Assembly: GCA_947623285.1 (NCBI GenBank)
Contig: CANQGP010000002.1
Coordinates: 23,143 to 55,142, forward strand
Reading direction: 5' to 3'
DNA: 32,000 nucleotides
Source of the DNA: an uncultured Clostridia bacterium
GTDB taxonomy: Bacteria; Bacillota; Clostridia; TANB77; CAG-508
Positions 1 through 26,810 of the stretch are shown here, one piece after another. Made by a program: the position numbers and the translations under genes. Each line of letters begins with the position of its first letter. Within the stretch, counting starts at the first letter, position 1. Under the pieces are notes generated by a model. The model was not told the DNA's origin and searched no databases. It worked only from the letters and a program-made list of their open reading frames with translations.

Positions 1-3000
1 TACTAAGATTAATACAGTGTATACCATTTCTGAACCTGTTTTAACACTAACGATTGTATCTGCTGCACTGTAGTCATCCTCGTTTTTATCTCCGTTTCCT
101 GGTGTTGAGTTAATATCTTGTGTTCCTTCTTCGTTGTATGCTTCTGTGATTTCAGCTGTATTTCCCATGATTCCTGTATTACTTTCTGTCATTGTTTTTG
201 TTAATATTAATGTTACTACTCCACTTTCTCCTGGTGCTATTGCTTTGTTTTGTAAGCTATTTGTTCTTAACACTGTTCCTGTTTGATACCAATCTTGGTT
301 TAATTCTGAATTGAATACCATATCTTCTGGCATATAGTCGTCTATTGTTTTAACATATCCTGATACTTCTCCGACATTTTTTGCTTCTATTTTATATTCA
401 ATTATTAAATTGGCACCTTCCATCTTTTTGCCGTCAAGTTCAACTTTTGCTAATACTTCTTTGTCATAATTATATGTTTTTACATCTCCGTCATTTGTTC
501 TTACTGTTATTTTACTTATGTATTTTTCTAGTGCAAAATCAAATTTTCCTGTTGTTACTAATCCTATGTTTATGTTTGAAACATTTGAATTTTCTTGAAT
601 TGCTAACATATCTGTTATTCCATAGGTTTTTTCTTCTCCATCTATTCTAAGTGTTTTAGAGATTGCCTTTGAATTGCTGCTTGCGTCTACTCCTGGTTTT
701 TGATATTCTGTAAGTTTATATGTTCTTGTATCATATTCAAATATTACAACATATTCACCTTGTGGTATATTCTGAAGTGTATATAATCCTGTACTATCTG
801 TAGCACTTTGTATTTGATTTCCATTTTCATCTTTTGCAAATTCATTTGTTTCAATATTTAATAATTTTACTGTCATATTTTCTACTGTATTTTCATAATC
901 ATCTTTTGCTCCATTCAAATCTCCATCTACCCATGCATATCCAGATATTGTACCTTTACTAGTAGGATTTGGATTTTCTCCTGGTTCTGATGATGGGTTT
1001 GTTGTTGGTTCTGTTGATGGATTTGTTGATGGCTCTGATGATGGGTCTGTCGATGGTAGTGGTTCTTCTTGCGGTTCTCCTATTATGTGCTGTATTGTTT
1101 TTGTTTGTCCGACAACATTTCCTTTTTCCATTAATTCGACTTTATTATTTATTGGTATATTTTCAGTAGTTTCTCCTTGGTAATTGATTAATACTTTTGC
1201 TGTTAATGTTTTTTCTTCTTCAGGTCCCAAAGATATTACTTTGTTTATCTTATTATCTACCGCTTTTACTACATCTGTGTTTCCATCTTGTGATGTTATT
1301 GAAGCTTCAGCTAAAGAAACTTGTGATGGTAATTGATCAACCACATTTAATACTGGATATTCTATATTGCTGTTGTTTTTTATTCTTACTGAATATGTAA
1401 TTGCATCTCCTGATTGAACATATCCGTTTTCTTGTACATCTGAATTGATTGATAAATCAAATCCCTTTAAATATTCTAAATCAACATCCAATGTTGTAGA
1501 ACGATATGTATTACTTCCTGCTGTTACTATTCCTGATACTGATACTTTATCTTTTTGTGAATTTTCTACTACTTTAAATATTACATCTACTAAAGCACTT
1601 TGACCTGGTCCTATTGATTCTATAGTTATAGTTTCGTCATTTTTTGGTGCAAACTCTACATCAGTTGTTAATCTGTTTGATATTCTTTCTAATTCTGCTG
1701 GTGCATTCCATTTAGCTTTTACATTTTTTATTTCGTGATCTGTTGTATTTTTTATTTCCATCCTGCAGTTAACATTGTCACCTTCTTTATATGTTTGTGT
1801 ACTAACAACGAAGTATGTAATTGCTACTTGTAAGTCTCCACTTTGTTTACCTACTTTTACTGTAACTTCATTAGAATCTATACTTTTTTCTTCAAAACTT
1901 ACTGTTGCCTTACTCTTTATTTGCATTCCTGTTTCTGCTTCATTATTTACAATTACTTCAAAGCTTACTGTTTTACTTTCTTTTGCTTTAATTTCTTCTA
2001 TTTGAATTGTTTTTTCAGTTGCTTCTTCTTTATTTATTGCTAGTCCTTCTCTTGAAATTAATGTTGTTCCTTCTGGTATTTCAACTTTAGCTTGTACATT
2101 TGTTAAGTCTTCATCTCCTGTATTTTCTACTTCTACATCATATCTTATTATTTCATTTCTATTTACTTCTGAATCATTTTCTAATACTTCTCCTCCAACA
2201 ACTGCTGTTAAATTTGCAACCATTTGAGGTCCATTTGCTGTTTTTAATGCTATTGTTGTTGCTTCCATTTCTTGTGCTGAACTTGCTTGATTGTCATTAT
2301 ATTTTACTGAATATCCTTGATACATTTGTTGTTTATATTGTAGATTTTCTGGTACTGATATTCCATAAGATATTTTCATTGTTTCTGCAACATTCATATC
2401 TGATACTTGTACTAAATATTTTTTTGCTGCTCCTGTATTTGTTACTGTTTGTTCCCATCTATTTGACAAGTTTTCTAAATCGTCTGTTGCTTTTTCATTT
2501 TCTGTGTAATAAACTCTTACTTTACTTGGATCTATTCCTTCTACATTTAATGCTGTTGTTAATTGTGTATTAATGTTGTTTTCATATTCTTCTTTTCCTA
2601 TTTGTGCTTTTCCTTTTGTTCCAAATGTTCCCATTACTTTTACATCTGATATTTCACTTTCGTTGTTATTTATTACTTCTGATTCTACTGTTAATACCTT
2701 TTGTTCAGCTCCTGTAGGAATTGTTACATTTACTCCTTTTTGTTCTCCTACTGTTGAAACTCCTAATTCAGATATACTGTTTGTTGTAATCAAACTTCTT
2801 GGTGATACTATATCTACTACTGCTTCTTCTGTTCCTATTGGTGCTGCATCTTTATATTGATTTGCTTTTGCATTTGTATATGTCATTACTATACTATCTT
2901 TTTTGTTTAATGCTCTATTATTTAATGTAAGATTAGCATTTATGTCTATTACCGTTCCTTCTGTTCCTGCATCTTTATGTTCTTTTTGCTCTCCTATTAA

Positions 3001-4854
3001 TTCCATTCTTATTACTTGTTTTCCGTCTACTACTCCTTGGCTTGCATTTACTGTTGCAAATTCATCTCCATATAATTTGTTTACACTATTTACTTTTACT
3101 GCTTGTACATCTTTAGGAAATTCTATTGTAACTACTGGATTTGCATATAAATCTTGGCTTGGAGAATTTGTTTTTAATGTTGCTTTTATTTCTACATTTT
3201 CATTTTCTTGTGTTGTTGTTAAACTTGTAGCATTTGTTTCTATTGATGCTTGAGTTGTTGATTCTTTTAATTCTATTGTTGCCATTGTTCCTTCTTTACT
3301 TATGTTTGTTGCTATTTCTGGTGCTACTGCTATATTTCTTATTTGTTTTACTAATTCTCTTGGTTGATTTATTGCTCCACTTATTGATTTTGTATTTAGT
3401 ACTATCATTTTTCCTTCTGTTTGTGGTGCTGTTGTTTCTACTATGATATTTGTTTCTGCTTCTCCATAAGTTACTGTTATTATTCCTTGTTCATCTGCTT
3501 CAGTATCTTTTGTTATAGTTGTAATTACTTCTCCGTTTGCTCTTTTAATTGTAAATGTTCCATTTTCTCCAAACATATTTAAGAATTCATTTTTATTTAT
3601 TTTTGTTTCTTTATATCTTATATTTGTTGTTGGGATTATTCCTTGTCCTTCTTCATTTGTATATATGCTATTGTTTGTTTGCATTTCTAATTTTTCTATT
3701 CCTTCTGTATATGAAACTACCATAGCATTTTTTTCTATATAATCCATTTCTTTTGCTTCGTTGTCATATAAATATCCTTTATATATATCTCCTGTTAATT
3801 GTGTTTCTACAGTTGCTATGTTTCCTATTGGAGTAATTGCTAATGCTTGTACATCTTCTTTATTTATATTATCTCCTTTTGAATATAAAGAAGTTTGTGA
3901 TGAAGTTCTTAATTCTACTGGAGTTTCTACTAATGGTGCTGTACTTGTGTAATGGTACATTATTGTGTATTCTTTTTTATCTGATCCCCAGTTTAAATTT
4001 CCTTCATTGTTGTCAATGTTTTTATATGACACAATTACTGTTCCTTCATTTTTATTGTATATTACATTTTCTTCTGCAACACGGTCACCATCTATAAGTA
4101 CTGTTACATTTTCTGGTTTTTCATTTGCAATTATTGGCACGTTTGTTTGAATTGTTTCAGTATTTCTAGGTAATATGTTTTTTACTACTTCTGTTTGCAC
4201 CTTTTGTTGAACCAATGTACCATTTGCACCTAAACTGAAATATTTTTCTATTGATTGAGTTAGATTTATTTCAGCATTAGCTGTCCACATTGGTTTTATT
4301 TTTACACTACCTTCCAATTCTTTTTCTCTTTTATTTGTGTTTTCATATTTTCCGTTTAATGTAATATTTATTTCTTTATTTAAATAATTTGTACTTATTA
4401 CATCTGACTTTTTGAATTGTATTGGTAATACTATTGATGCTACAGTATTAGAAGATATATTTTTTAATTCAATTTCATTTGTATCTGTGTTTACATTATT
4501 CACATATTTATTTTCAGTTATTTTATCTTTTATAATACTGAAATTGGCATCTTCTATTTTGATAGTTGCATTTGAAATAGAGAACTTATCTTTTACTGAT
4601 ATTTCTAAATGTAGATTTTGTTCTTCTTCTATATTTAATTCTGTTTGATGTTCTCTTCCTTCTTTTTCAAAGTATGTATCAAAACTGATATTTTCTCCTT
4701 TCGTTATTGTTGCTTGGTTTTCTAATTCTTCAGCAACTGCACTAGCAATGTTGCTTCCTACTAATGCAAAGTTAGCAAATATCATACAAAATATGATTAA
4801 TGTTGCAATTATTTTGTTTGCTAAAGATTTGTTACTTAATATGAATTTTTCCAT
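1..4854 (-). CDS. Giant cell-surface protein (1618 codons visible; the last ~20-30 codons lie beyond the left edge); paralog of the 9691-14469 gene
   Basis: Absent from the ORF track only because its stop is outside the window. The minus-strand frame aligned to position 1 is open in every line I checked (no in-frame tta/cta/tca on the + strand). ATG at 4854-4852 is preceded by GAGGGAG and by an in-frame TGA (4866-4864). The product starts MEKFILSNKSLANKIIATLIIFCMIFANFALVGSNIASAVAEE (signal-peptide-like). Its last ~330 aa are colinear with the 9691-14469 product: ISGYAWVDGDLNG...GLYTLQNIPQGEYVVIFEYD (SdrD-B/Cna-B-like), then ...INSTPGNGDKNEDDYSAADTIVSVKTGSEMVYTVLILV at the edge. The + strand ORFs 381-4648 are Leu/Phe-rich antisense artefacts. 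Confidence 0.85.
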   Translation of the reverse strand, partial: MEKFILSNKSLANKIIATLIIFCMIFANFALVGSNIASAVAEELENQATITKGENISFDTYFEKEGREHQTELNIEEEQNLHLEISVKDKFSISNATIKIEDANFSIIKDKITENKYVNNVNTDTNEIELKNISSNTVASIVLPIQFKKSDVISTNYLNKEINITLNGKYENTNKREKELEGSVKIKPMWTANAEINLTQSIEKYFSLGANGTLVQQKVQTEVVKNILPRNTETIQTNVPIIANEKPENVTVLIDGDRVAEENVIYNKNEGTVIVSYKNIDNNEGNLNWGSDKKEYTIMYHYTSTAPLVETPVELRTSSQTSLYSKGDNINKEDVQALAITPIGNIATVETQLTGDIYKGYLYDNEAKEMDYIEKNAMVVSYTEGIEKLEMQTNNSIYTNEEGQGIIPTTNIRYKETKINKNEFLNMFGENGTFTIKRANGEVITTITKDTEADEQGIITVTYGEAETNIIVETTAPQTEGKMIVLNTKSISGAINQPRELVKQIRNIAVAPEIATNISKEGTMATIELKESTTQASIETNATSLTTTQENENVEIKATLKTNSPSQDLYANPVVTIEFPKDVQAVKVNSVNKLYGDEFATVNASQGVVDGKQVIRMELIGEQKEHKDAGTEGTVIDINANLTLNNRALNKKDSIVMTYTNAKANQYKDAAPIGTEEAVVDIVSPRSLITTNSISELGVSTVGEQKGVNVTIPTGAEQKVLTVESEVINNNESEISDVKVMGTFGTKGKAQIGKEEYENNINTQLTTALNVEGIDPSKVRVYYTENEKATDDLENLSNRWEQTVTNTGAAKKYLVQVSDMNVAETMKISYGISVPENLQYKQQMYQGYSVKYNDNQASSAQEMEATTIALKTANGPQMVANLTAVVGGEVLENDSEVNRNEIIRYDVEVENTGDEDLTNVQAKVEIPEGTTLISREGLAINKEEATEKTIQIEEIKAKESKTVSFEVIVNNEAETGMQIKSKATVSFEEKSIDSNEVTVKVGKQSGDLQVAITYFVVSTQTYKEGDNVNCRMEIKNTTDHEIKNVKAKWNAPAELERISNRLTTDVEFAPKNDETITIESIGPGQSALVDVIFKVVENSQKDKVSVSGIVTAGSNTYRSTTLDVDLEYLKGFDLSINSDVQENGYVQSGDAITYSVRIKNNSNIEYPVLNVVDQLPSQVSLAEASITSQDGNTDVVKAVDNKINKVISLGPEEEKTLTAKVLINYQGETTENIPINNKVELMEKGNVVGQTKTIQHIIGEPQEEPLPSTDPSSEPSTNPSTEPTTNPSSEPGENPNPTSKGTISGYAWVDGDLNGAKDDYENTVENMTVKLLNIETNEFAKDENGNQIQSATDSTGLYTLQNIPQGEYVVIFEYDTRTYKLTEYQKPGVDASSNSKAISKTLRIDGEEKTYGITDMLAIQENSNVSNINIGLVTTGKFDFALEKYISKITVRTNDGDVKTYNYDKEVLAKVELDGKKMEGANLIIEYKIEAKNVGEVSGYVKTIDDYMPEDMVFNSELNQDWYQTGTVLRTNSLQNKAIAPGESGVVTLILTKTMTESNTGIMGNTAEITEAYNEEGTQDINSTPGNGDKNEDDYSAADTIVSVKTGSEMVYTVLILV
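970..1074 (-). repeat. In-frame 12-nt tandem repeat (tetrapeptide P-[ST]-[ST]-[EDN]) forming a Pro/Ser/Thr linker
   Basis: Minus-strand translation is EEPLPSTDPSSEPSTNPSTEPTTNPSSEPGENPNP. The Pro codon (tgg on the + strand) recurs every 12 nt from 982 to 1056. The tract is locally G+C-richer and lies immediately N-terminal of the SdrD-B-like module. Confidence 0.8.
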
Positions 4855-4897
4855 AACACTCCCTCACATTCTTCTCCTTATAAATTTCACTAATAAT

Positions 4898-4926
4898 ATA
4901 TTAGCTAGTTTTTTTTTCTAAATCAA
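4898..4926 (-). promoter_or_regulatory. Putative sigma-A-type promoter of the 4854-1 gene
   Basis: The minus strand reads TTGATT (4926-4921), 17 nt, TAATAT (4903-4898). The spacer contains an A9 run (T9 on the + strand, 4909-4917). It lies ~45 nt upstream of the ATG. Confidence 0.45.
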
Positions 4927-5177
4927 TAGCTGTATTCTTTGCTTTGAGCTTGATTGAGAGTTTTGCAGTTAGGGAAGCTCATTCTAGGGTTTTTTGTGTT
5001 AGTTTTGTTAAAAATTGTTTACATTTTTGTTACATTTTAAGTTTTTTTGGTGGTTATTTGCGTTTCCGTAAAGGGTTTTGAAGTTTTCTATCTTTTTAAA
5101 TTTTTTTAAATTTTTTTGATTTTTTGTTGAATTATTTAAAATTTTTTTAAAATTTCTATGATTTTTTGTTAAATTTT

Positions 5178-5221
5178 AAAAAAAAATAAGAAGATAAGAA
5201 CTAATTTCCTATCTTCTTATT
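5178..5221 (-). terminator. Intrinsic terminator downstream of the 5243-9673 gene
   Basis: Perfect 12-bp stem (5210-5221 tatcttcttatt pairs with 5185-5196 aataagaagata) with a 13-nt loop. On the minus strand it is followed by a T-run (A-run 5178-5184 on the + strand). It begins 22 nt after the stop codon. Confidence 0.8.
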
Positions 5222-5242: not shown

Positions 5243-8200
5243 TTATTTTGTTAATACTTTTTTCTTTATTAATACTATTCCGCTTCCAAGTACTATTAAT
5301 GCTACTATTGTTACGGCAGTATAGATTACATATGTTATAGCATCTTGTCCTGTTGGTGAAGTTACCTTTACTTCTTCTGAAACTGATGTATCATTTTCTC
5401 CTTCATCTATTTGTCCTTCTTCTAATGCTTTTCCTGGTACATAATTTCCTGGTGTTGAGCTTACTTTTCTTCCGCCCTTTTCTTTGTCTATATGTATAAT
5501 TTCTGTTTCATTGTTAAGGTTAATATCTTCATCTGATGCTGCTAATACTTTAGATACTGTTAAGTTTGTTGTGTTTACATTGTTTGGTGCTTCTGGTGTT
5601 AATGGCTTACTTAATGCTGTAGTTGTTAATATTCTCTTAGCATCTAATTTTGTTGTATCTGCTTTAACTTCGTCTGCAAACATATTCTTGTGTGTAGTAT
5701 GTAATTCTTCTGTTGCACTTGTAACCCATCCTGCATCTTTTTGTTGCCAATCACTATTTATAGTTTCATCATATCCCCAACTATTATCTAGGTAATCTAC
5801 TATTTCTTCTGCACTTAATGTTCTTAGTTGTGCACCTGGGTCTATTACTCCATAATCATAGTATCTTGTACTGTCATAATCTTTTTCACTTATGTTTGTT
5901 GCTTTAAATTCGTATTGTACTTGTAAAGTAGCTCCTTGCATTACCTCATTATCTAATTCTAGTTTAACTGTTCCAAATGGTGCTGTATTTGATTGAGGCA
6001 TGTATGTTAATGAATCTCTTTGTCCTGTTATTGTTCCATCTTCAGCTATTGTTGCATCTACTAATACTTGTCCATTTGCAAATGTTAATCTTAATCCGCT
6101 TACACGTTTTGATAATTTTAAATCTTGTATTGGTCTTTCAATTATACCGAAGTCAACACGTGGGACATTATATTTTAAGAATACATCTTTTACTGAATTT
6201 CCATCTTGGTCAAATTCTACTTCTGTAACTTCTAGTTCATCAAATTCTATTGTTATTGACATTGGAGCTGTTGTTGATTCCATATTCATGTTTGCTGTGT
6301 TAACACTATTTTCATATACTTGATGTTTTGTAATTTCATCAATTTCTGCTCTTATACTTGGATCGTCCTTAGCATCTGTATATCTTGGGTCAACTTGATC
6401 TGGATTTTCTGGATTTTCTAAGTATTTCTTATACCATTCAGGGTTAGTCATTTTTCTGTTCCATTCATCTTCTGGTTGAGTTGTTGATTTGTAGTTTTCT
6501 GATGTATAAGTTATTACTGTTCCATCAGCTAATGTATATGTTTGACTTCCGTCTCCCCATATAAATCTGATTACATATTTTCCTGGTACAAATCCATTTA
6601 TTGAATAAGTTCCGTCATCATTTGATGTGATAGTTTCTGTGGTAATTTCATTACCAAGGTTATCAAATCTTTGAGCTAATTTTGGATTATTTGATTCATC
6701 TTTTTTGATTATAGGATTTCCTTCGCTATCACGTTCTATTTCTTCATTTTCTGTTGTTTCTACTTCTAGTAGTTGAACTTGTACATTTCCTATTCCATGT
6801 TCTCCTCCATCAAATATTCCATTTCCTAGTTTTTGATTTCCTGTTCCACCATTATTTGGTGCTTCTGCTAAGTCTTCAAATACATTTCCTTCTAATGTTC
6901 TACCATCTCCGTCTCCATGGTATTGTAATATGAATGATGGTGCTGCATCTGTATCATCTTCGTATGTTTCTAAGTTGTCTGGTGTTACATTTCCTGGTGC
7001 TGAATCTATATCTATACCTGCATATACATTTCCTTCTGAGTCGAATGAAGTATATGATGCTATTTCTACTACATTTTCTAATGGAGCTTCTGGTTCGTTT
7101 TCATCATTTTCATTCATATCTAGTATTGTTTTTACTGTATCTCTATTCATTATGAATTGTATATAAACATCTGAACCTTGATAATCTCCTTTTAATTCTC
7201 CAGTGTTATCTTTTACACCTTGATATTCTCCATTTAATTTGTCTTCTTCTACTTGTTTTTCTTCTTCTTCACTTGATGGTGCACTAGATTTACCTGGTTC
7301 TAATATTGTGTCTAATGTGTTGATTGTTACCATTTTGTATTTATCATTGTAGTTTTCATTTTCTTGATATTTTAATTCTCCAGTTACATTTCCTTTTTCA
7401 TCTATACCTGTTCCTATTGCTTGGATTGTATAATTTGCATCATAGTAATCTACTATTCTGTTTACTCTTGCTCCTAATGTTGTTGACTCATTTCTGTATC
7501 TTATTCTATATGTTACTGCTACTTTTAACTCTTTGTTATTTTCACCTTCTGATTGTTGTGCACTATCATCTGTATATAATGCATCTGCTTTATAAATTGG
7601 TCTTGTATATTTTGCTTTATCTGGATTTGTAGTTCCTGTTGGGAATTTAACTCCAACATTGAATCCGTTTTCATATTCACCTTGGTTTTCATATCTATTT
7701 GCATAGTTATATGTGTGATTATATCCATTTATTGATACTATTGCGTTTTGTACGTCTTTTTTAATTGCTAAGTCAGGTCTATCTCTTAAATATAATCCTA
7801 AGTTGATGTTTTTAATTTCTTCTACTTCTCCATATGTGAAGTGGCTTTCTATTGAATATCCTGTTTCATCTGTATTTGCTGTTAATGGGAAGTATTGATT
7901 TTCATAATCAAAGAATGATTTGTATCTGTCGTCGCCTTCACCTTTGTTGTATTTTAATTCATTTATTCTACTTTCACCATCTTTAAATATAGATACTCCT
8001 GTATTCTTTTCTTTATCATTTCCTTCTACATAAGTAAATTCATCATTAAAGCTTTGTCTTGTAATTTCATTTTCTGCTGCTTTTGAACCATTGTCTATAT
8101 CTATATGTGGGATTACATTTGTATAAATTAATCCGTCATATTCAAATTCGATATAGTAATCATTTAGTTTTTCTATTTCAACATCTTCAAATAGATATGC

Positions 8201-9673
8201 TCCATTTTCGTCTGTTTTTTGTTCTCCTATTACTTCGCCAGTTGATTTTGATTTTAATCTTACTGTTACTCCTGGCATTAATTCATCGTTCTTGTCATAT
8301 GTATTGTCTTGGAATAAGTCATTTCTTTGAGTGTCTTTTCCAAATATCATATCTTTCCATACATATCCTGAAAGTTTAATCCATTTTTGTTCATTTTCTA
8401 CAACTTGGTAGTCACCGTCTATTATGACTTTTACATCTGTACCATTTTCTGGAGCTATATATCCATAATGTTTGTTTCCAACCTCATGTGCTGTATATGT
8501 TCCGACAATTAAGTCTTTTATTTCTATTTGTCCTTTATCGTCTGTTGTAAATTCTGTTGCTTCTTCTCTACTGTCTACATATGAGATTTTATCTCCTTCT
8601 TGTTTTACATATTTTCCTCTTGCATTTGTAAATACAAATGTTACTCCGTCTAATTTAAAGTCATGATTATTTTTATTTACTTTTTCTAGTTTTAAATCTC
8701 CTAATAGAATAATTTCTGGTACTTCTGCGTTTGCATTATCTCTTAATGGAGTAGGTTGTGTGTCTACTGTTATTAGGTTTTGTCCTCCTGTACCTAGTAT
8801 CCATATATCTGCTTTTATATCTTGTGAATCTTTGTATATTCCTACATCAATTTTATTGATTTTTTCTACAGTTCCATCTGCTGGAACTAATACAAAGAAT
8901 TGTTTTTCATTTTTTAGTATATCTAATGCATTTGATGAAGTTATAAGATTGTCACCTTCATAGCTTCCATATAATGGAGCTATTTCATTATTATTTTGAT
9001 CATATGTTCTTACATATTCTAATGTTCCATCAAATTGTGGTGTAAATGGTCCTACTTTTGCAAGTTCTTGTCCATTTATTTCTACTAATTCTATTGTTGG
9101 TTGTGCTTCACTCTTTATTGTTATTGTTGCTTTTTGTTCTTGTTGTACAGATTGTGCATATTGTTCACCTTGTTTTATCATGCTTGGATATGAATGTCCT
9201 CCTGAATTATAACCAACATCTCTTATTACGTTTGCATTTAACCATGTTCCAATATGTCCATATACTGCTTGTTGTTTTGGAGAGTAATTTCCTACCCAGC
9301 TTCCTGAATCATATTGTGCTAAAATGTATGCCATTGTTCCATTTGCTGTGTCTTCATGTGTTGCTAATAGGCTTGAAGGTGAATTACTATTTCCTCTATA
9401 TATATAAGAAGTATTTTTGTCTATATGTACATAATATTGAATATTAAATACAGTATGTGGATTTAAGTAACGTCCATTTTGTATACAGAATGTTTCGTTT
9501 CCTGGTAGTCCTTCTACTACTGTGTCTGCACTTGTTGCATCTCTACGAAGTGAACCTACTACTGTTGGAACTCCAAAATCTAATTGTCTTGCTTCTGCTT
9601 TTGTTTGAACTATTATTATTGCTAATAACATCATCATTATTGTTACAACTACTTTTAATATTTTCTTACTCAT
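5243..9673 (-). CDS. Giant surface protein with a putative N-terminal thioester (TQXA-like) adhesin domain and a Cna-B/SdrD-B-type stalk
   Basis: The ORF track gives 5243-9682 from a TTG. The better start is ATG 9673 (MSKKILKVVV...), with GGAGG at 9687-9683 nine nt upstream. Signal peptide ends ...VQTKAEA. FCIQ (Cys codon 9487-9485) and KQQAVY (9277-9260) resemble the Cys and Gln motifs of thioester domains. Later come a prealbumin/Cna-B-like module (LKLEKVNK...IVGTYTAHEVG..YGY) and two SdrD-B-like modules (LSGYVWKD...DENGAYLFEDV; LEGNVFED...DDGTYSINGFVPGKYVIRF). The C-terminus is TSPTG, a hydrophobic helix, then KKKVLTK. Confidence 0.9.
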   Translation of the reverse strand: MSKKILKVVVTIMMMLLAIIIVQTKAEARQLDFGVPTVVGSLRRDATSADTVVEGLPGNETFCIQNGRYLNPHTVFNIQYYVHIDKNTSYIYRGNSNSPSSLLATHEDTANGTMAYILAQYDSGSWVGNYSPKQQAVYGHIGTWLNANVIRDVGYNSGGHSYPSMIKQGEQYAQSVQQEQKATITIKSEAQPTIELVEINGQELAKVGPFTPQFDGTLEYVRTYDQNNNEIAPLYGSYEGDNLITSSNALDILKNEKQFFVLVPADGTVEKINKIDVGIYKDSQDIKADIWILGTGGQNLITVDTQPTPLRDNANAEVPEIILLGDLKLEKVNKNNHDFKLDGVTFVFTNARGKYVKQEGDKISYVDSREEATEFTTDDKGQIEIKDLIVGTYTAHEVGNKHYGYIAPENGTDVKVIIDGDYQVVENEQKWIKLSGYVWKDMIFGKDTQRNDLFQDNTYDKNDELMPGVTVRLKSKSTGEVIGEQKTDENGAYLFEDVEIEKLNDYYIEFEYDGLIYTNVIPHIDIDNGSKAAENEITRQSFNDEFTYVEGNDKEKNTGVSIFKDGESRINELKYNKGEGDDRYKSFFDYENQYFPLTANTDETGYSIESHFTYGEVEEIKNINLGLYLRDRPDLAIKKDVQNAIVSINGYNHTYNYANRYENQGEYENGFNVGVKFPTGTTNPDKAKYTRPIYKADALYTDDSAQQSEGENNKELKVAVTYRIRYRNESTTLGARVNRIVDYYDANYTIQAIGTGIDEKGNVTGELKYQENENYNDKYKMVTINTLDTILEPGKSSAPSSEEEEKQVEEDKLNGEYQGVKDNTGELKGDYQGSDVYIQFIMNRDTVKTILDMNENDENEPEAPLENVVEIASYTSFDSEGNVYAGIDIDSAPGNVTPDNLETYEDDTDAAPSFILQYHGDGDGRTLEGNVFEDLAEAPNNGGTGNQKLGNGIFDGGEHGIGNVQVQLLEVETTENEEIERDSEGNPIIKKDESNNPKLAQRFDNLGNEITTETITSNDDGTYSINGFVPGKYVIRFIWGDGSQTYTLADGTVITYTSENYKSTTQPEDEWNRKMTNPEWYKKYLENPENPDQVDPRYTDAKDDPSIRAEIDEITKHQVYENSVNTANMNMESTTAPMSITIEFDELEVTEVEFDQDGNSVKDVFLKYNVPRVDFGIIERPIQDLKLSKRVSGLRLTFANGQVLVDATIAEDGTITGQRDSLTYMPQSNTAPFGTVKLELDNEVMQGATLQVQYEFKATNISEKDYDSTRYYDYGVIDPGAQLRTLSAEEIVDYLDNSWGYDETINSDWQQKDAGWVTSATEELHTTHKNMFADEVKADTTKLDAKRILTTTALSKPLTPEAPNNVNTTNLTVSKVLAASDEDINLNNETEIIHIDKEKGGRKVSSTPGNYVPGKALEEGQIDEGENDTSVSEEVKVTSPTGQDAITYVIYTAVTIVALIVLGSGIVLIKKKVLTK

Positions 9674-16287: not shown

Positions 16288-18414
16288 TTATAACATAGTT
16301 TGTGTAAGTGGTAAAGCTTGCGTACTTTCCTCTACAGTCTGTGCATTCATTCCAAAATATTCTGCCATTATTTCTCTTACCGCTTCTGCTGTATAGTTTC
16401 CGTGCCCACCATTTTCTACCATTACCACTACTGCTATTTCTGGTTTATCAAATGGTGCAAATCCAACGAACCATGCATTTACATCATTTGTTGCTGTTTC
16501 TGCTGAACCTGTTTTTCCTCCTACAGGTATGCTAAATTCTCTAAATATATTGCTTGCTGTTCCTCCTGAATCTGATGTAACTGAACGCATTCCTTCTAAT
16601 ACTGTATTTACATATTCTGGATTTATATTTATGTCAGCAGGTGTTGTATCTTGTATATTTAATTTTTGATTTATGAATTTTTCTATTTCTTCTCTTGATA
16701 CTTCTGTTCCATTTGCATTTTGTATTGTTTTTATTATTGTTGCATCTACATGTTTTCCCCTATTTGCTAACATACTAATGTATTTAGCCATTTGTAATGG
16801 TGTAAATTCATTATATCCTTGACCTATTACTGCATTTAGTGTGTCTCCTGGATTCCATGAATATCCTATGCTATCTGTATATTCTTTGCTTGCTAATACT
16901 CCTGATTTTTCGTCTGGTAATTCTATTCCTGTTTTTCCTCCTAGTCCAAAATATCTAGCATATTTGGCTAATTCATCTATTCCCATTCTGTCTCCTGTTT
17001 CATAGAAGAAAAAGTTACATGATTTTTCAATTGCTCCCATTACATTCAAAGGACCATGTCCTACATGATAGTCTGTATAATACCAACAATTCATTTTTAT
17101 TCCATATTTACTATATACACCTGTATCATTTATTCGTGTGTTTGTATTTATTACTCCACTTTGTAATCCTGCTATTGCTGATACCATTTTGAAAGTTGAT
17201 CCTGGAGAGTATGATACTTGTGTTGCTTTACTTACTAATGGATGTAGCTGGTCATCTCTATATTTTACCCAATCTTCATTACTTATTCCATTTACAAATA
17301 ACCCTGGATCATAGTCTGGATAACTTGCCATTGCTAGTACTTCTCCTGTGTTTACATCCATTACTACACATGCTCCGCCTTTTGCATTATAAACTTTTCC
17401 AAATCCTCCTGCTCTGATTTTTTGTATGTTGTTTGCTAATGCTCTTTCAGTTATTGCTTGTAAGTTAGAATCAATTGTTAATACTATATTTGAACCTGCC
17501 ACTGCTTCTTGTGTTATATATTCTGCTGTTGCAGTTCCGTCTACTGCCATATCTATTTGCTTTGTTCCGTCTTTTCCTTTTAGATATTCTTCAAATACTG
17601 ATTCGATACCTGTTCTTCCTATTAAATCATCATTTTTATATGTATCTTTTCTGGCTTCATATTCTTCTTCATTTATTCTACCTGCATAACCAAGTATATG
17701 TGATGCTAAGTTTCCTGATGTATATGTTCGTATTGGTTTTACTACAATATTTATTCCTGGGAATTTTTCGCTACTTTCATTGAATTCTGATACTGCTTCT
17801 CTTGGTATGTTATCTGCTAATTTTATTGATTTTGTACTACTATATCCTTTTTGGTTAATTTCATATCTTATTGCCATTATCTTTCTTGCGTCATTTATGT
17901 TTTCTTGTTTTATTTCATATTTATCTTTAAATTTATAAAAGGCTTGTTCCGCTGTTGTTTCTGCTGGTAATTTATTACTTGCCAACCATTTTGAAAGCTG
18001 GTCTGCTTCTATTGTGTATTGCATAGTATTTATATCTACTGGGAATGAATCTGGATAACTTATTCCATATTTTTCTAATACTCCTATGATATTAAAGATT
18101 GTATTATTTAATGTTTCTGTATCACTTTTTGTTTTATATAATTCTAATTCAAAAATCATATTTGATGATACTAATGTATTTCCTGTTTTATCTAATATTT
18201 GTCCTCTTGCTGCTCTTAGAGTACTTTCTCTTGATAGTCTTGTGTTTGACTGTTCTCTATATTCTGCTCCATTTACAATTTGCAGGTTAAATAATTGGAC
18301 TAACAAGATTATTCCTATTATATATACTAGGATTGTTAATACATTAAATCTTAAATTTATATTATTTTGTTTTATAATTTTTCTTATTTTTCTGCTATTG
18401 AAAATTCTTGCCAT
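16288..18414 (-). CDS. mrdA: Class B penicillin-binding protein 2 (elongation transpeptidase)
   Basis: 708 aa with an N-terminal TM anchor. It carries the STFK, SCN and KTGS(A) transpeptidase motifs (GSTFKMVSAIAG, IEKSCNFFFYE, GGKTGSAET). It sits directly after mreD. SD AAGGTG lies upstream of ATG 18414. Confidence 0.9.
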   Translation of the reverse strand: MARIFNSRKIRKIIKQNNINLRFNVLTILVYIIGIILLVQLFNLQIVNGAEYREQSNTRLSRESTLRAARGQILDKTGNTLVSSNMIFELELYKTKSDTETLNNTIFNIIGVLEKYGISYPDSFPVDINTMQYTIEADQLSKWLASNKLPAETTAEQAFYKFKDKYEIKQENINDARKIMAIRYEINQKGYSSTKSIKLADNIPREAVSEFNESSEKFPGINIVVKPIRTYTSGNLASHILGYAGRINEEEYEARKDTYKNDDLIGRTGIESVFEEYLKGKDGTKQIDMAVDGTATAEYITQEAVAGSNIVLTIDSNLQAITERALANNIQKIRAGGFGKVYNAKGGACVVMDVNTGEVLAMASYPDYDPGLFVNGISNEDWVKYRDDQLHPLVSKATQVSYSPGSTFKMVSAIAGLQSGVINTNTRINDTGVYSKYGIKMNCWYYTDYHVGHGPLNVMGAIEKSCNFFFYETGDRMGIDELAKYARYFGLGGKTGIELPDEKSGVLASKEYTDSIGYSWNPGDTLNAVIGQGYNEFTPLQMAKYISMLANRGKHVDATIIKTIQNANGTEVSREEIEKFINQKLNIQDTTPADININPEYVNTVLEGMRSVTSDSGGTASNIFREFSIPVGGKTGSAETATNDVNAWFVGFAPFDKPEIAVVVMVENGGHGNYTAEAVREIMAEYFGMNAQTVEESTQALPLTQTML

Positions 18415-18438
18415 ATATTATTTTCACCTTCTTCGAAT

Positions 18439-18981
18439 TTAGAAATATCTTGTTAGAATTTTGTTTCCTTTGTATTCGTTTTCTATGTAATATCCGAATC
18501 TTTGAATTAATGGATACAATATAATAGAAAGGATTATATTGTATATTGTTTCTATCATAAGTATTTTTATAAATATTAATATATCTACATTTGTGTTTAA
18601 TATAACGAAATGTAGCAAATACATTACACTCTCTGTTGCTATTGTTGTTGCTGCTACTATAAACATTATTGTTATTCTATTGTCTTTTGAAAAATTTTTA
18701 TCGAATATTCCTGCAAGTAGTCCAACTATACCATATACTACTGCAGTTATACCTACTGTTTGATTTGTTAATAAATCCACTATTAAACCTATAGAGATTC
18801 CATATATTGCACCTAAGTTTTTATTTGTAAAAAGTCCTATGAATAAAACTAAAATGATAAATAAGTTTGGCATTACATTTGCTATTGTAAACCAATTGAA
18901 AAAGTTCAATTGAAGAAAATATACTACAAATGCTAGTATGACTAATATTATATTGATTATTACTTTTTTCAATTGGTTCAC
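18439..18981 (-). CDS. mreD: Rod shape-determining protein MreD
   Basis: 180-aa polytopic membrane protein immediately downstream of mreC. Position and hydrophobic profile are typical of MreD. Confidence 0.75.
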   Translation of the reverse strand: MNQLKKVIINIILVILAFVVYFLQLNFFNWFTIANVMPNLFIILVLFIGLFTNKNLGAIYGISIGLIVDLLTNQTVGITAVVYGIVGLLAGIFDKNFSKDNRITIMFIVAATTIATESVMYLLHFVILNTNVDILIFIKILMIETIYNIILSIILYPLIQRFGYYIENEYKGNKILTRYF

Positions 18982-19005
18982 CTCTTTTCTTTGATTGCTA
19001 ATATT

Positions 19006-19836
19006 TTAATTGTTTGTTACTACTAATACACTTGTCAATTTATCAAAATCTATTGCTGTTTCTACTATTGCATATCTATCTGTTATGTTTTGGGTTGATA
19101 CTACTTTTTTTATTGTTCCAATGTGAATTCCTTTTGGATAAACCCCTCCAATTCCAGATGTTTCAATACTATCTCCTTGTATTATATTTGCATCTGTTGG
19201 TATATACATTGCTCTTAATTCTGAATCTGATGATAAATCTCCTTTACATACTATACTATCTTTTGTTGTGCTCATTATTGCACTTACAGAACTTGATGTG
19301 TCTACTATTGTTTGAACTTTAGCTGTTGTGTCTGTTACTGATACAACATGTCCTACTAATCCCTGGTCCCCAATTACTGTCATATCTTTTGCAACTCCGT
19401 CATTGCTTCCTACATTTATTACTATTGTTCTTGAATAGTTACTTATATCTCTATTTACAACATAACCTGAGATTGTTTTATATTCTCCGTATTTTTCTGT
19501 TAAGCTTAGATATTCTTTTAATGTTTCATTTTCTGTTTTTATATTTTCCATTTCTCTTAACTCTTGTTCTAATTCACTATTCTTTTTTTGTAGTTCTTCA
19601 TTTTGGCTTTTTAAATTATTTATATCAGCAAAAAAAGTATTATTTCCGCTTACTTTATTTTTTAAATATGTTAATCCATTTTGTACAGGCACTATTACTT
19701 TGTTTGCTACATTTTCAAAAAATGATGCTTCTCCATTATCATTGTTTGAAAATATTACTATTATTATTAATACAATTATTGTTATAAATACACCTAAAAA
19801 ACCTGTTTTTCTGTTTTTATACATTGGCAACCACAT
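19006..19836 (-). CDS. mreC: Rod shape-determining protein MreC
   Basis: TM anchor, then a coiled coil (LKSQNEELQKKNSELEQELREMENIKTENETLKEYL), then beta-barrel domains (GLVGHVVSVTDTTAKVQTIVD...GIGGVYPKGIHIGTI). The start is ambiguous: ATG 19836, TTG 19830 or ATG 19824. Confidence 0.9.
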   Translation of the reverse strand: MWLPMYKNRKTGFLGVFITIIVLIIIVIFSNNDNGEASFFENVANKVIVPVQNGLTYLKNKVSGNNTFFADINNLKSQNEELQKKNSELEQELREMENIKTENETLKEYLSLTEKYGEYKTISGYVVNRDISNYSRTIVINVGSNDGVAKDMTVIGDQGLVGHVVSVTDTTAKVQTIVDTSSSVSAIMSTTKDSIVCKGDLSSDSELRAMYIPTDANIIQGDSIETSGIGGVYPKGIHIGTIKKVVSTQNITDRYAIVETAIDFDKLTSVLVVTNN

Positions 19837-19843
19837 TCCTTAT

Positions 19844-20878
19844 TTATATTTTTCTTCTTCTATTATTTATTAATCCTGTCCTTAGCTTTTCTATTTCGTC
19901 TAATGTTCGTCCTGTTCCTTTAACTACACATTCTAAAGGGTCATCTGCTACATAAACTGGCATTTGCGTTTCACTACTTAGTAATTTATCCAAATTTTTT
20001 ATTAATGCTCCGCCTCCTGCTAGTACAATTCCTTTTCCCATTATGTCAGAAAGTAGTTCAGGTGGAGTTTTTTCTAATGTTTGCTTTACACAATCTACTA
20101 TTTTTTCTATTGGTTCTCTCATTGCTTCTTCCATTTCGGTTGAAGATATTGTTACTGTTTTTGGCAATCCATCAGTTAAATCTCTTCCTCTTATTTCCAT
20201 ATATGCTTCTGTCATCAAAGGTGCTGCACATCCTATTTCCATTTTTAGTTGTTCTGCTGTTGTTTCTCCTACTGCTATGTTCTTTTCTCTTTTTAAATAA
20301 TTTACTATACTTTTATCTATTTCATTTCCTGCAACTCTAAGTGATTGACTTACTACTATTCCACCTAATGATATTACTGCTACTTCTGTAGTTCCTCCCC
20401 CTATATCTACAATTATATTACCGCTTGGCTCTCCTACATCTAACATTGCTCCAATTGCTGCTGCCATTGGTTCTTCTATTAAAAGTACTTCTCTTGCTCC
20501 TGCTTGCATTGTTGCTGCTTCTACTGCTCTTTCTTCTACTTCAGTTATTCCTGATGGTACTCCTACTATTATTCTTGGTTTTCCTATACTATATTTTTTT
20601 CTTACTTTTTGAATTATGTTTCGTAGCATTAATTGAGTTGCTGTATAATTCGCTATCACTCCATCTTTCATTGGTTTTACTGCTGTTATTTGTTCTGGTG
20701 TTCTACCTAACATTTCTTTTGCTTCTATTCCAGTTGCTACTATATTTTCACTTCTTCTATCTATTGCTACTACTGCTGGTTCTTTTAAAACTATTCCTTT
20801 TCCTTTTAATGTTACAAGAATATTTGCTGTTCCTAAGTCAATTCCTATATCCTTTGAGCCAAATGAAAATAATTTCAT
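19844..20878 (-). CDS. mreB: Actin-like rod shape-determining protein MreB
   Basis: 344 aa reading KDIGIDLGTANILV...VGVPSGITEVEERAV...DIGGGTTEVAVISLGGIV, the classic MreB/actin-fold motifs. Confidence 0.95.
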   Translation of the reverse strand: MKLFSFGSKDIGIDLGTANILVTLKGKGIVLKEPAVVAIDRRSENIVATGIEAKEMLGRTPEQITAVKPMKDGVIANYTATQLMLRNIIQKVRKKYSIGKPRIIVGVPSGITEVEERAVEAATMQAGAREVLLIEEPMAAAIGAMLDVGEPSGNIIVDIGGGTTEVAVISLGGIVVSQSLRVAGNEIDKSIVNYLKREKNIAVGETTAEQLKMEIGCAAPLMTEAYMEIRGRDLTDGLPKTVTISSTEMEEAMREPIEKIVDCVKQTLEKTPPELLSDIMGKGIVLAGGGALIKNLDKLLSSETQMPVYVADDPLECVVKGTGRTLDEIEKLRTGLINNRRRKI

Positions 20879-20912
20879 AATCCAATTTCACAACCTTTCT
20901 TGTTTTTCTTTA

Positions 20913-21609
20913 TTAATTCTGTTTTGATAATTCAGAAAATATACTTATATATTTCATATTTCCTATAACCATATGGTCTAACAATTCTATTTCAAACATT
21001 TGTGAAGCTTCATATAATTTTTCAGTAAATTTAATATCTGCATCACTTGGAGTTGGATTTCCACTTGGATGATTATGCACTAATATTATTTTTGGTGCTT
21101 GCATTTTTATTGGTTCACTTAAAATATCTTTTATACTTAAATTTACAAAGTTGCTTCCTCCGATTGCAACATCTTTCATTTTTATTATTTCGTTTCTTGA
21201 ATTTAATATAACTATTTTTGCAATTTCTCTTTTTTCATGTTGCATTTCACTTAGCAAAATTTTTGCTAAATCATATGGTTTTTTTATCTGTATTTTTCTG
21301 TAATCTGCAGGTTTTGATATTCTCACTCCGAAGTTCACATGCTGCTTTTATTTGTATTGCTTTAACTCTTCCTATTCCTTTTATTTGCTTAAGTTCTTCT
21401 ATTGTCAATTCTTTTAAGAATTCTAACCCTCGCTTTGGTTCTTCTTTGTTTATAGCCAGTATTTTTTGTGCTAATTGGACTGATGTTTCTTCTTTAGTTC
21501 CTGTTTTTATTATTATTGCTAGCAATTCTGCTTCTGAAAGTGTTTTTTCTCCATAAAGTTCTAATTTTTCATATGGTCTTTCTGCATTTGGTAATTCTTT
21601 TATTTTTAT
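20913..21609 (-). pseudogene. radC: radC (JAMM-type RadC/YsxA family), carrying a frameshift and lacking a canonical start codon
   Basis: The two track ORFs (21525-21271 and 21338-20913) are the N- and C-terminal halves of one RadC. The N half reads KELPNAERPYEKL...LLAIIIKTGTKEE...IKGIGRVKAIQIKAACEL. The C half reads GVRISKP...ILVHNHPSGNPTPSDADIKFT...LLDHMVIG. The frames join if one nt is removed in gaacttcgga (about 21330-21333). Upstream of KELP the frame is open only back to TAA, and contains ATA AAA ATA AAA GAA (ATA at 21609) where M-K-I-K-E-L-P is expected. Confidence 0.75.
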
Positions 21610-21647
21610 TTTTATTCCTTCTTTCTTTTATAAGAATTACCCTGTCA

Positions 21648-21908
21648 TTAAACAAATCTTCTATATATAATTATTGCTATTGTCATTCCTATTATACTTG
21701 CTATATTAATATTGAACATTAATCCGAATGTTATTTTTACTACACTTAGGTCTAATGTTACTGGATCTGTTAATCCAAATTGTTGACCAAATCCCATCCA
21801 GCTTAACCATTCAACATTTGCTGCAAGTTGTCCTAATAATCCTCCTACAACTAATCCTGATAGTATAAATATTATTAGTATACATATATTTTTTTCTTTT
21901 GTTGCCAT
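21648..21908 (-). CDS. Small membrane protein, DUF4321-like
   Basis: The track ORF is 21648-21932. I prefer ATG 21908 (MATKEKNICILIIFILSGLVVGGLLGQL...), preceded by GGGGG. It has two hydrophobic segments and ends IIYRRFV. Small proteins like this precede radC/mreB in Clostridia (from memory). Confidence 0.6.
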   Translation of the reverse strand: MATKEKNICILIIFILSGLVVGGLLGQLAANVEWLSWMGFGQQFGLTDPVTLDLSVVKITFGLMFNINIASIIGMTIAIIIYRRFV

Positions 21909-21965
21909 ATTTTTGCCCCCTATATATTCCATTTTTCCTTACGGAAATTTATATTTATCAATGGT

Positions 21966-21994
21966 ATTATATCTTGAATTGTTAATTTTTTCAA
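21966..21994 (-). promoter_or_regulatory. Near-consensus sigma-A promoter for the DUF4321-radC-mreBCD-mrdA(-minC) operon
   Basis: The minus strand reads TTGAAA (21994-21989), 17 nt, TATAAT (21971-21966). Confidence 0.65.
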
Positions 21995-22044
21995 GTATAT
22001 CTATTTATTTTTTATATTTATTGTGTTAAGATGTATATTAATAA

Positions 22045-22190
22045 ATTCAATATAATATAAAACAAATAAAACCGCGTAAGCGACCAAACGTAGCGATAGC
22101 GAAGTGCGACTTGGAGCAACTTACATACTAATTATTTGTATATGGAAGTTGCGACACCAAGGTTTTATTAGTTTTATGATTATATTGAAT
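22045..22190. repeat. Long palindrome E2 (146 nt): 28-bp AT stem enclosing an 87-nt G+C-rich structured core
   Basis: 22045-22073 (attcaatataatataaaacaaataaaacc) pairs with 22161-22190, with one mismatch and one bulge. The core (22074-22160) contains CGC-GTAA-GCG (a GNRA-type loop), five GCGA motifs, and a nested hairpin CTTGG-A-GCAACTT...AAGTTGC-GACA-CCAAG. Confidence 0.8.
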
Positions 22191-22332
22191 ATTAGAATAT
22201 CAAGATATTATATAATTAAACATTTTAATATTGAATAATATTATCGAGTTATTTTATTACCAAAATTTTTATATTTAAATATAATATAATTAGTAGTATA
22301 ATGAATATAAGGACTGTTCGAGGAGGATTTCT

Positions 22333-22956
22333 ATGAAAATTGAAAAATTAACTGAAAATAAGATACGAATTCTATTAAAAAATGAAGATATTAAAGATAA
22401 AAATATAGATTTACATACGATTATGACAAAGGCCATTGAATCACAGGGATTCTTTTTAGAAATGTTACATCAAGCAGAAGAACAACTAGGATTTTATACT
22501 GATGGTTGTAAGCTTTTAATTGAAGCTTATTCCTCTCCTGACAATGATTTTGTTTTTACAATTACTAAATACTTGGAGGCTGAAGACACCGTTACTTTGC
22601 CTAGAAAAAGAGTTGTTCCAAAAAGAAAAAAGGTTAATGTATCATCAAAACATTTTATTTTTTCTTTTGAAGATTTTGAAGCATTTTGCTCTTTATGTAC
22701 TTTTCTAAATCATTCTAAAATTTCTGCTAGAGGATTGGCTAATCAGATCTCTTTGCATGAATATAATAGTACATATTATTTAGTTATCAATGGACTTAAT
22801 AATAAAAACTTATGTTATAAAACATTGTTTTCTATTTTCTCAGAATTTGGAAAGTTTGTGGATACTTCTTCAAGTTTTGAAAACAAATTACTTGAACATG
22901 GTCGCATTACTATCAAACATAATGCTTTGTATACTGGAATTAAATATTTTGCATAA
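22333..22956 (+). CDS. mecA: Adaptor protein MecA (ClpC adaptor)
   Basis: AGGAGG lies 6 nt upstream of the ATG. The N-terminus is MKIEKLTENKIRILLKNEDI. The C-terminal region (FIFSFEDFEAF...YNSTYYLVING...FSEFGKFVDTSSSFENKLLEHGRITIKHNAL) is colinear with B. subtilis MecA as I recall it. Confidence 0.85.
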   Translation: MKIEKLTENKIRILLKNEDIKDKNIDLHTIMTKAIESQGFFLEMLHQAEEQLGFYTDGCKLLIEAYSSPDNDFVFTITKYLEAEDTVTLPRKRVVPKRKKVNVSSKHFIFSFEDFEAFCSLCTFLNHSKISARGLANQISLHEYNSTYYLVINGLNNKNLCYKTLFSIFSEFGKFVDTSSSFENKLLEHGRITIKHNALYTGIKYFA

Positions 22957-22980
22957 ATAAAATTATAGAAATCAAAAAGC

Positions 22981-23039
22981 GAACCCAATTGTTTAAACAT
23001 TCTTGTGCTTAGCACATTGTCTAACAATTGGGTTCTTTT
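22981..23039. terminator. Bidirectional intrinsic terminator between convergent mecA and the M23 peptidase gene
   Basis: A 13-bp stem, gaacccaattgtt (22981-22993) with aacaattgggttc (23023-23035), has an inner hairpin tgtgc/gcaca. It is flanked by aaaaa upstream and tttt downstream. Confidence 0.75.
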
Positions 23040-23088
23040 CATTGTCAAATTTTTTAATTCACTTTATCTATATTAATACTTTCTTATT

Positions 23089-24090: not shown

Positions 24091-24192
24091 TATTTTCTCC
24101 TTTGAAATTTTTGATCTTACTTATGTTTATTGTTCTTTTGTGTTACATTTTTATATGCATTTATCTTTATATTTCTTTTTTGTTACATTGTA

Positions 24193-24221
24193 ATAATATT
24201 GTAATATTTGTTTTTTTGCAA
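24193..24221 (-). promoter_or_regulatory. Putative sigma-A promoter of the M23 peptidase gene
   Basis: The minus strand reads TTGCAA (24221-24216), 17 nt, TATTAT (24198-24193). The leader is ~95 nt and A-rich. Confidence 0.5.
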
Positions 24222-24270
24222 GACGGTTTTCAGTCGATTTCGTCCAAATTTGACTGTTTACCTGGGTATA

Positions 24271-24330
24271 TCTCTTGTTTTCTTTAAATATCTCTCGTTT
24301 TCTCCGTTTTTCTTTGTTTTTCTCTCTAAC
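24271..24330. repeat. Six tandem degenerate 10-mers (TCTYYNNTTT) with exact 10-bp phasing
   Basis: The units are tctcttgttt / tctttaaata / tctctcgttt / tctccgtttt / tctttgtttt / tctctctaac. Every unit starts with TCT. The tract lies between the pcrA stop (24407) and the M23 promoter. Confidence 0.8.
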
Positions 24331-24406
24331 GTGCTTGTTTGTTGATAATCACATACTCTCACTATTTTTAGATGTGAAAGATTTTTGTTTAACTAAATTT
24401 TTATTT

Positions 24407-26749: not shown

Positions 26750-26810
26750 ACACTCCTTTCTTTATTTTTTCTTGTATTTGTAAGCTTTTTGTTGGTTTTT
26801 TACTTAAATA

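Follow-up and report, generated by a model that had tools for sequence, protein, structure and literature searches.

A giant sortase-anchored surface protein from an uncultured Clostridia bacterium with a probable, highly divergent class II thioester domain at its tip

The window analysed here comprises 32,000 nucleotides (nt) of contig CANQGP010000002.1 (positions 23,143 to 55,142 of the forward strand; assembly GCA_947623285.1) from an uncultured Clostridia bacterium, and all coordinates below are those of the window. Its minus strand carries, at 5243..9673, the gene for a surface protein of 1476 residues. Thioester domains (TEDs) let bacteria bind their targets covalently and are known mostly from cultured pathogens and conjugative plasmids. 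Residues 29 to about 320 of the surface protein probably form a highly divergent class II TED, placed at the tip of a sortase-anchored fibrillar adhesin of the TIE type, with a predicted bond between Cys63 and Gln298. A thioester-type adhesin head at the tip of a long stalk had been proposed in an initial annotation of the window, and is supported here as the most likely reading by motifs, conservation, structural matches to class II TEDs and protein architecture; the glutamine then chosen as the bonding residue has been replaced. The gene and the elements of its N-terminal domain are as follows.

5243..9673, minus strand: surface-protein gene of 4431 nt (1476 residues), start ATG 9673, stop TAA 5243-5245, encoding a signal peptide, a TED-like head, an immunoglobulin-like (Ig-like) stalk and a sorting signal
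9683..9687, minus strand: ribosome-binding site GGAGG, 9 nt upstream of the ATG, as read from the sequence
9590..9673, minus strand: residues 1-28 (MSKKILKVVVTIMMMLLAIIIVQTKAEA), a Sec signal peptide; cleavage is likely between AEA and R, judging from the sequence pattern
8714..9589, minus strand: full extent of the TED-like domain (residue 29 to about 320), from the AlphaFold2 model and the Foldseek matches
9479..9490, minus strand: FCIQ, a [YFL]CΦζ motif at the end of a modelled β-strand; the codon of Cys63, the proposed thioester cysteine, is 9485-9487
9260..9277, minus strand: KQQAVY, which corresponds to the helical TQxxΦW motif and opens predicted helix α2; holds Gln134 and Gln135 and is not the proposed bond partner
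8882..9127, minus strand: inserted β-sandwich, residues 183-264, between helix α3 and the terminal hairpin, a class II hallmark; holds Gly208-Pro209 and the FY pair 259-260
8720..8854, minus strand: β-hairpin, long and twisted, of residues 274-294 and 299-318; Gln298 occupies its turn, and the two strands would correspond to P and Q of TEDs
8780..8782, minus strand: codon of Gln298, in GQNLI, the proposed thioester-forming glutamine

The mechanical open reading frame (ORF) call starts at an in-frame TTG at 9682. Since this TTG abuts the GGAGG directly, the ATG lies 9 nt downstream and homologues begin MSK, the true start is likely ATG 9673, three codons after the TTG. The residues at issue are therefore numbered Cys63, Gln134 and Gln135, and not 66, 137 and 138 as in the initial annotation, which had the codons right and the numbering three too high through counting from TTG 9682. 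The minus-strand translation of 5243-9673 contains GNETFCIQNGRYLNPH and NGTMAYILAQYDSGSWVGNYSPKQQAVYGHIGTW, the two motif stretches, and a scripted check of the coordinates placed Cys63 at 9485-9487, Gln134 at 9272-9274 and Gln135 at 9269-9271. FCIQ and KQQAVY(G) thus lie precisely where they had been reported, and the spacing of 71 residues from Cys63 to Gln134 stands as described. The range 9050-9590 first assigned to the domain falls inside it and covers only the first ~60%, the domain reaching about 8714 (residue ~320). The 1476-residue protein was found identical on 5 metagenome contigs and is known only from metagenome contigs.

A word-indexed search with the N-terminal domain returned one homologue, and the two-sequence profile made from it was fed into an exhaustive search with hidden Markov models (HMMs). 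This gave 99 cluster representatives (about 99 clusters at 50% identity), all from metagenome assemblies. Family members are mostly 1200-2000 residues long, the match is always N-terminal, and none of 10 clusters looked up carries a name (0/10). A single-protein search of the contigs of GTDB species representatives gave no relative.

In known TEDs the bond joins the Cys of a [YFL]CΦζ motif to the Gln of a weak ΦQζΦΦ motif; these two residues are located in β-strands, and no others are universally conserved. A third motif, the helical TQxxΦW (TQxA(I/V)W in earlier usage), lies beside the bond (PMC4450167, PMC6194298). It is found in most TEDs, not in all. Conservation was counted in an alignment of 55 complete homologous N-terminal domains, with a 27-sequence subset (A2) and a further alignment (A3). 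Cys63 and Gly208 were invariant (55/55 each). Gln298 was kept in 53 of the 55; both exceptions are short fragments (295 and 363 residues), and in one of them the residue is merely shifted by one column. In A2 the invariant residues were Cys63, Gly208 and Gln298 only, and Gln298 was invariant in A3 too. The positions around the cysteine read F28/Y18/L9, C55, I34/V13/L3/M3 and Q29/E10, and FCIQ was confirmed as a true [YFL]CΦζ motif, beyond a chance occurrence. The helix motif reads [K..]-Q134 (51/55)-x-A (40)-[I/V/L]-[Y32/W23], the last at position 138; relatives carry KQKAVW or VQNAVW, and the assignment of KQQAVY as the counterpart of TQxA(I/V)W also held. Gln135 was not conserved (K13/N11/R9 and others). 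Gln298 is followed by N (38 domains), L (36) and I (33), a Q-N-L-I motif, and is separated from Cys63 by 235 residues here and by 222-302 residues (median 240) in the family. No His, Asp or Glu was conserved at ≥70% anywhere in the domain.

Cys63 is the only cysteine among the 1476 residues, and 27 of the 55 homologous domains have a single Cys; a disulfide role for Cys63 was excluded on this ground.

Three further sites, none with a known TED counterpart, were highly conserved: Asn111 (51/55), where helix 1 begins; Gly208 with Pro209 (53/55), in the β-sandwich; and the pair F259-[Y/F]260. In the alignment this pair falls on the FY of GxxFYxTAP, a motif of plasmid class II TEDs.

Structure prediction was performed using AlphaFold2. 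The model of the window domain, made with the 27-sequence alignment, covers residues 28-335, with a predicted local distance difference test score (pLDDT) of 88.1 and a predicted template-modelling (TM) score of 0.80. It consists of strands 59-63 (ending in Cys63), 77-85, 88-93 and 102-107 and helices 109-119, 132-147 (with KQQAVY at its start) and 163-177, followed by the β-sandwich and the long hairpin, with Gln298 where the last long β-strand begins. For a relative with 24% identity, a second model had a pLDDT of 91.7 and the same order of elements. Strands, three helices, inserted β-sandwich and long hairpin are, in both models, predicted in the order of class II TEDs, in which a seven-strand β-sandwich of ~75 residues is located between helix α3 and the extended P-Q hairpin, and the hairpin loops back as a slipknot that delivers the Gln (PMC6194298). 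Each of the three TED motifs falls at its expected place, both in the sequence order and in the predicted secondary structure (β-strand, start of the middle helix, β-strand).

Both models were compared with 350,542 chains of the PDB using Foldseek, and E<1e-3 was taken as significant. For the first model the only matches below this value were EfmTIE86-TED 6fwy (1.4e-6 and 2.0e-6) and BaTIE 6fwv (7e-5 and 2.3e-4), over 299-335 columns; for the second they were two 6fwv chains (1.2e-4 and 1.8e-4). Foldseek probabilities of the class II TED matches were 0.98-1.00 (1.00 for 6fwy), and the next-best matches had E-values of about 1e-2 or worse. No class I TED structure was among the significant matches.

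Profile-profile comparison was performed using hhalign, with the family set against 12 plasmid class II TEDs of the TIEpLS20 family. TIEpLS20 (p34), from the Bacillus subtilis plasmid pLS20, is an adhesin with a class II TED and is required for conjugation; Cys68 is essential and Gln256 modelled (PMC8092201). Lobe-matched profiles gave P=0.0025 for N-lobe against N-lobe and P=0.011 for C-part against C-part, with 0.29 and 0.21 for the mismatched controls, which suggests a signal that is specific though weak. The profile alignments pair FCIQ with YCID (Cys68), FFVLVP with FYFTAP and GQNLI with YQRLM (modelled Gln256) of the TIEpLS20 family. In global mode hhalign returned a 7-column alignment only, which is meaningless.

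Several results weigh against a class II TED. Neither Pfam TED (PF08341) nor TED_2 (PF20610) nor NCBIfam gave a match at E<=1 for the window protein; the Pfam TED models matched none of the 27 family members, and no TED was found among PDB sequences by phmmer or by the family HMM. As currently built, the HMM-defined Pfam TED, TED_2 and NCBIfam families thus do not include the domain. Full-length local profile-profile comparison was not significant (P 0.03-0.07, HH probability below 2%), and all profile-profile comparisons stayed below an HH probability of 12%, not significant by HH-suite standards. TM-scores to the TEDs were only 0.22-0.29, with a root-mean-square deviation of 10.8-13.6 Å over 293-335 columns, and a global superposition (TM about 0.5 or more) was not obtained. 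The low TM-scores suggest that at most one lobe superposes and that the crystal structures would differ from the domain in how the lobes are placed to each other, or in some of the fold. SaTIE-TED (6fx6) was not among the significant Foldseek matches. The residue preceding Gln298 is variable and not hydrophobic, departing from ΦQζΦΦ, and the helix motif of the window protein has Lys for Thr and Tyr for Trp.

The initial annotation had named the lack of an HMM match as grounds for rejecting a TED, and no such match was found. This is a weak criterion, because an experimentally supported class II TED, that of pLS20, barely passes Pfam and has no match among PDB sequences. Run as a control, TIEpLS20 scored 28.8 bits with TED_2 (cut-off 27) and 23.6 bits with TED (cut-off 22), passing by 1-2 bits, and phmmer found no match for it in the PDB. 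For a profile of nine TIEpLS20 plasmid relatives, the match to 6fx6 (SaTIE-TED) was no better than E 1.7e-5 and spanned ~90 residues about the Cys. Since TIEpLS20 is itself near or below detection, HMM silence constitutes weak evidence against a TED. The word-indexed search returned no match for the TIEpLS20 TED and none for A2, although relatives of A2 are known to exist, and is uninformative.

Beyond the head, the protein has the layout described for TIE adhesins (PMC4450167), with a signal peptide, an N-terminal head, a stalk of SpaA and SdrD_B domains and a sortase sorting signal.

8405..8701, minus strand: SpaA/CnaB-type prealbumin-like stalk domain, residues 325-423 (Pfam PF17802, E 1.5e-12)
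8117..8320, minus strand: SdrD B-like stalk domain, residues 452-519 (Pfam PF17210, E 1.7e-11), with a second copy further on
5267..5362, minus strand: cell-wall sorting signal, with TSPTG at residues 1438-1442 (5348-5362), a hydrophobic segment and a KKK tail

The stalk is ~1100 residues long, and about 900 of these, beyond the SpaA/SdrD_B domains, had no family match; the protein outside the head gave no match among PDB sequences. The C-terminus is a predicted sortase-type sorting signal, and [VI]TP[PSN]TG, a transmembrane segment and KKK were present at the C-termini of almost all of the 61 full-length family sequences listed. The sorting motif is [VI]-T-P-[P/S/N]-T-G and not LPXTG, and in TSPTG of the window protein Ser stands where Pro is usual. 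Of the window ORFs scanned, none matched a sortase family.

The partner chosen in the initial annotation would make the domain a minimal TED with a thioester from Cys63 to Gln134 or Gln135 of KQQAVY, about 70 residues downstream. The motif is real, with Q134 in 51/55 domains, and KQQAVY resembles TQxA(I/V)W, from which the family historically took its name. Such a pairing is nevertheless very improbable, as the helix α2 Gln of all solved TEDs hydrogen-bonds the Cys backbone, is not the partner and is dispensable (PMC4450167, PMC6194298), and Gln134 is at a predicted helix start here too. In 4 of the 55 relatives Gln134 is replaced by Ser, Lys or Val with Cys63 and the equivalent of Gln298 retained, Gln135 is unconserved, and ~180 more well-predicted domain residues follow. 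Taking the 'TQXA' glutamine as the bonding residue is a common misconception, wrong for TEDs and corrected here by reassignment to Gln298, the better candidate, 235 residues past the Cys in a domain of the large class II type (about 290 residues). Because the helix-motif Gln is not the bonding residue, 71 is the Cys-to-helix-motif spacing, and the idea of a minimal TED, drawn from that short spacing, drops out. Equally improbable is a stalked surface enzyme, a papain-, NlpC/P60- or transglutaminase-like peptidase or amidase with Cys63 as nucleophile. A single invariant Cys in an extracellular domain would suit it, and one model weakly matches a MALT1 caspase-Ig3 structure (Foldseek E 7e-3, probability 0.25); with no His, Asp or Glu conserved in the domain at the ≥70% level, however, there is no Cys-His-Asp/Asn triad, and the catalytic role of Cys63 was rejected on this account. 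The Pfam and NCBIfam scans gave no peptidase or transglutaminase family, and no such fold was among the significant structural matches.

A fold derived from TEDs that has no thioester, in which the Cys and Gln are structural or ligand-binding and the head is a non-covalent adhesin, is unlikely. It would fit the great distance from validated TEDs, the missing HMM match, the low TM-scores and the altered helix motif (Lys for Thr, Tyr for Trp), and formation of the bond is a prediction only. Once function was lost, selection on the Cys and Gln would be expected to slacken, yet both, with one Gly, are the most conserved residues down to ~22% identity, and it is difficult to see another reason for a lone invariant Cys in a secreted protein; the altered helix motif counts for less, as both its Gln and its Trp are unneeded for bond formation in Cpa (cited in PMC4450167). 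It is less likely still that the head is an unrelated adhesive or structural domain in which short degenerate motifs, a generic β-sandwich and helices resemble a TED by coincidence. The motifs are indeed short and degenerate, the HH probabilities are below 12%, and unrelated folds, too, give TM-scores of 0.2-0.3. Coincidence would, however, have to account for three motifs in the right order and secondary-structure context, for the two chemically required residues being the most conserved ones, and for two independent models with significant matches to class II TEDs only, out of all PDB chains searched. Lobe-matched profiles moreover outdo the mismatched controls 20- to 100-fold in P-value, and the architecture of the protein is that of TIE adhesins. 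The head most likely works like class II TEDs and descends from them.

For a class II TED with the bond Cys63-Gln298, the following course is proposed. The protein would be exported by Sec and the signal peptide cut after Ala28. The head would fold into a β-barrel and a three-helix lobe, with the β-sandwich inserted ahead of the long hairpin, and the hairpin would place Gln298 beside Cys63. The Cys63 thiol would then attack the side-chain amide of Gln298, with loss of ammonia (-17 Da), to give a buried Cys63-Gln298 thioester. The KQxAVY helix motif would pack on the Cys backbone through Gln134 and Tyr138 and take no part in the bond, so that, in the best-supported reading, these two residues would have the supporting role of the TQxxΦW motif. 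A target amine, most likely of Lys, would attack the thioester to form an intermolecular isopeptide bond to Gln298, and Cys63 would be freed. The ~1100-residue stalk of SpaA/CnaB and SdrD_B-type Ig-like domains would keep the head off the wall, and TSPTG, the transmembrane segment and KKK would direct attachment by sortase.

Comparison with the class II TEDs BaTIE (6FWV), EfmTIE86-TED (6FWY) and SaTIE-TED (6FX6) (Miller et al. 2018, PMC6194298) shows a common plan. Shared are the location at the N-terminus behind a signal peptide, a β-strand Cys within [YFL]CΦζ, Q-x-x-Φ-[W/Y] on the middle helix, a β-sandwich past helix 3, a long hairpin bearing the Gln, a CnaB/SpaA-type stalk and a sortase-type anchor. 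The window domain differs in having about 11-12% identity to them and no HMM-level similarity, besides the low TM-scores, and in the Lys for Thr and, often in the family, Tyr for Trp of the helix motif. Its Cys-to-Gln spacing is 235 (family median 240), whereas solved or modelled class II TEDs have 171-204 (PMC6194298, PMC8092201); its stalk, of about 1100 residues, far exceeds theirs, and TPxTG/TSPTG takes the place of LPxTG. With TIEpLS20 the window family shares the weak colinear profile alignment and the property of being barely or not detectable by standard HMMs. TIEpLS20 has 778 residues and is plasmid-borne, in a conjugation operon, whereas the window protein is chromosomal, near minC and mreBCD with no conjugation genes nearby, is twice as long and has a DUF11/CLIPPER partner. 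The class I TEDs SfbI, FbaB, Cpa and CpTIE (PMC4450167) have in common with it the three motifs and the Cys-Gln thioester capturing a target amine that is proposed here; they differ in lacking the inserted β-sandwich and in having an extra helix α0.

Predicted fibrillar adhesins have yielded, through AlphaFold, clusters of divergent TEDs in N-terminal heads that Pfam's own models do not match (Monzon et al. 2022, PMC9210967). As such HMM-invisible TEDs have been reported before (PMC9210967), the family is an unannotated divergent subfamily of the known kind of TED and not a new kind. The clusters of Monzon et al. retained Jackhmmer similarity to PF08341, whereas the window family shows none in the searches made, and, unlike them, it belongs to uncultured gut Clostridia and is known only from metagenome assemblies. 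If a class II TED is the right assignment, covalent adhesion is extended to uncultured gut Clostridia, with a conserved partner gene alongside. Since Pfam, NCBIfam and PDB sequence searches all miss the TED-like head, covalent adhesion may be under-counted in these bacteria. For annotation, the gain is a testable residue pair, Cys63-Gln298, and A2 and A3 as seed alignments for a new TED profile.

The TED-like gene is the middle one of three giant genes on the minus strand.

9691..14469, minus strand: upstream partner giant of 1592 residues, with DUF11/CLIPPER repeats and an SdrD_B domain; TAG stop 9691-9693
5185..5221, minus strand: hairpin resembling an intrinsic terminator, right after the TED-like gene, AT-rich and unusually long, with a 16-bp stem and a T-run
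1-4836, minus strand: third giant, over 1600 residues, paralogous to the 1592-residue protein, with DUF11/CLIPPER repeats and SdrD_B; runs off the window start

The TED-like gene begins 18 nt past the gene for the 1592-residue protein, and the two are probably co-transcribed, since the upstream TAG stop (9691-9693) lies just ahead of the GGAGG of the TED-like gene. The hairpin at 5185-5221 separates the TED-like gene from the third giant gene, which would therefore need its own promoter in 4837-5184. DUF11/CLIPPER repeats have recently been shown to be isopeptide domains (PMC12617251). The pair of a DUF11/CLIPPER giant followed by a TED-like giant, 4-18 nt apart, is kept in the distant relatives L095:327-10737 and L096:911-10201. 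There is a slim chance that the family is a TED lineage with a different job, namely covalent capture of a Lys on the partner giant or on the surface of another bacterium, which would build or cross-link a two-protein fibre or gut cell aggregates, or that its thioester chemistry is altered (reversible, pH-tuned); this is raised by the constant position of the family behind a co-transcribed DUF11/CLIPPER giant and by its distinct helix motif (Lys for Thr, Tyr and Trp alternating). A second TED-like domain was found neither in the window nor in L095 or L096.

The C-terminal motif of the flanking giants is [IV]S[IV][KR]TG[GS] followed by a transmembrane segment. As this is unlike the TPxTG of the TED-like protein, it suggests that the flanking giants use a different sorting signal or sortase. 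L096 also has a second CLIPPER giant, and after that giant comes a 3046-residue SpaA/M23-peptidase protein without a TED-like head.

The minus-strand ORFs 30223-31935 (570 residues) and 26910-27407 (165 residues) matched no Pfam family at E<=0.001. A housekeeping block at 15289-31935 contains minC, a PBP2-type transpeptidase gene, mreD, mreC, mreB, radC and mecA (plus strand), together with genes for an M23 peptidase, a PcrA/UvrD helicase and a second penicillin-binding protein (PBP) with a MecA_N domain; on the strength of this block the context was taken as chromosomal Bacillota/Clostridia and not plasmid or phage. The G+C content of the window is 28.7%, and its MreB is 73-76% identical to those of metagenome-assembled genomes of uncultured gut Clostridia.

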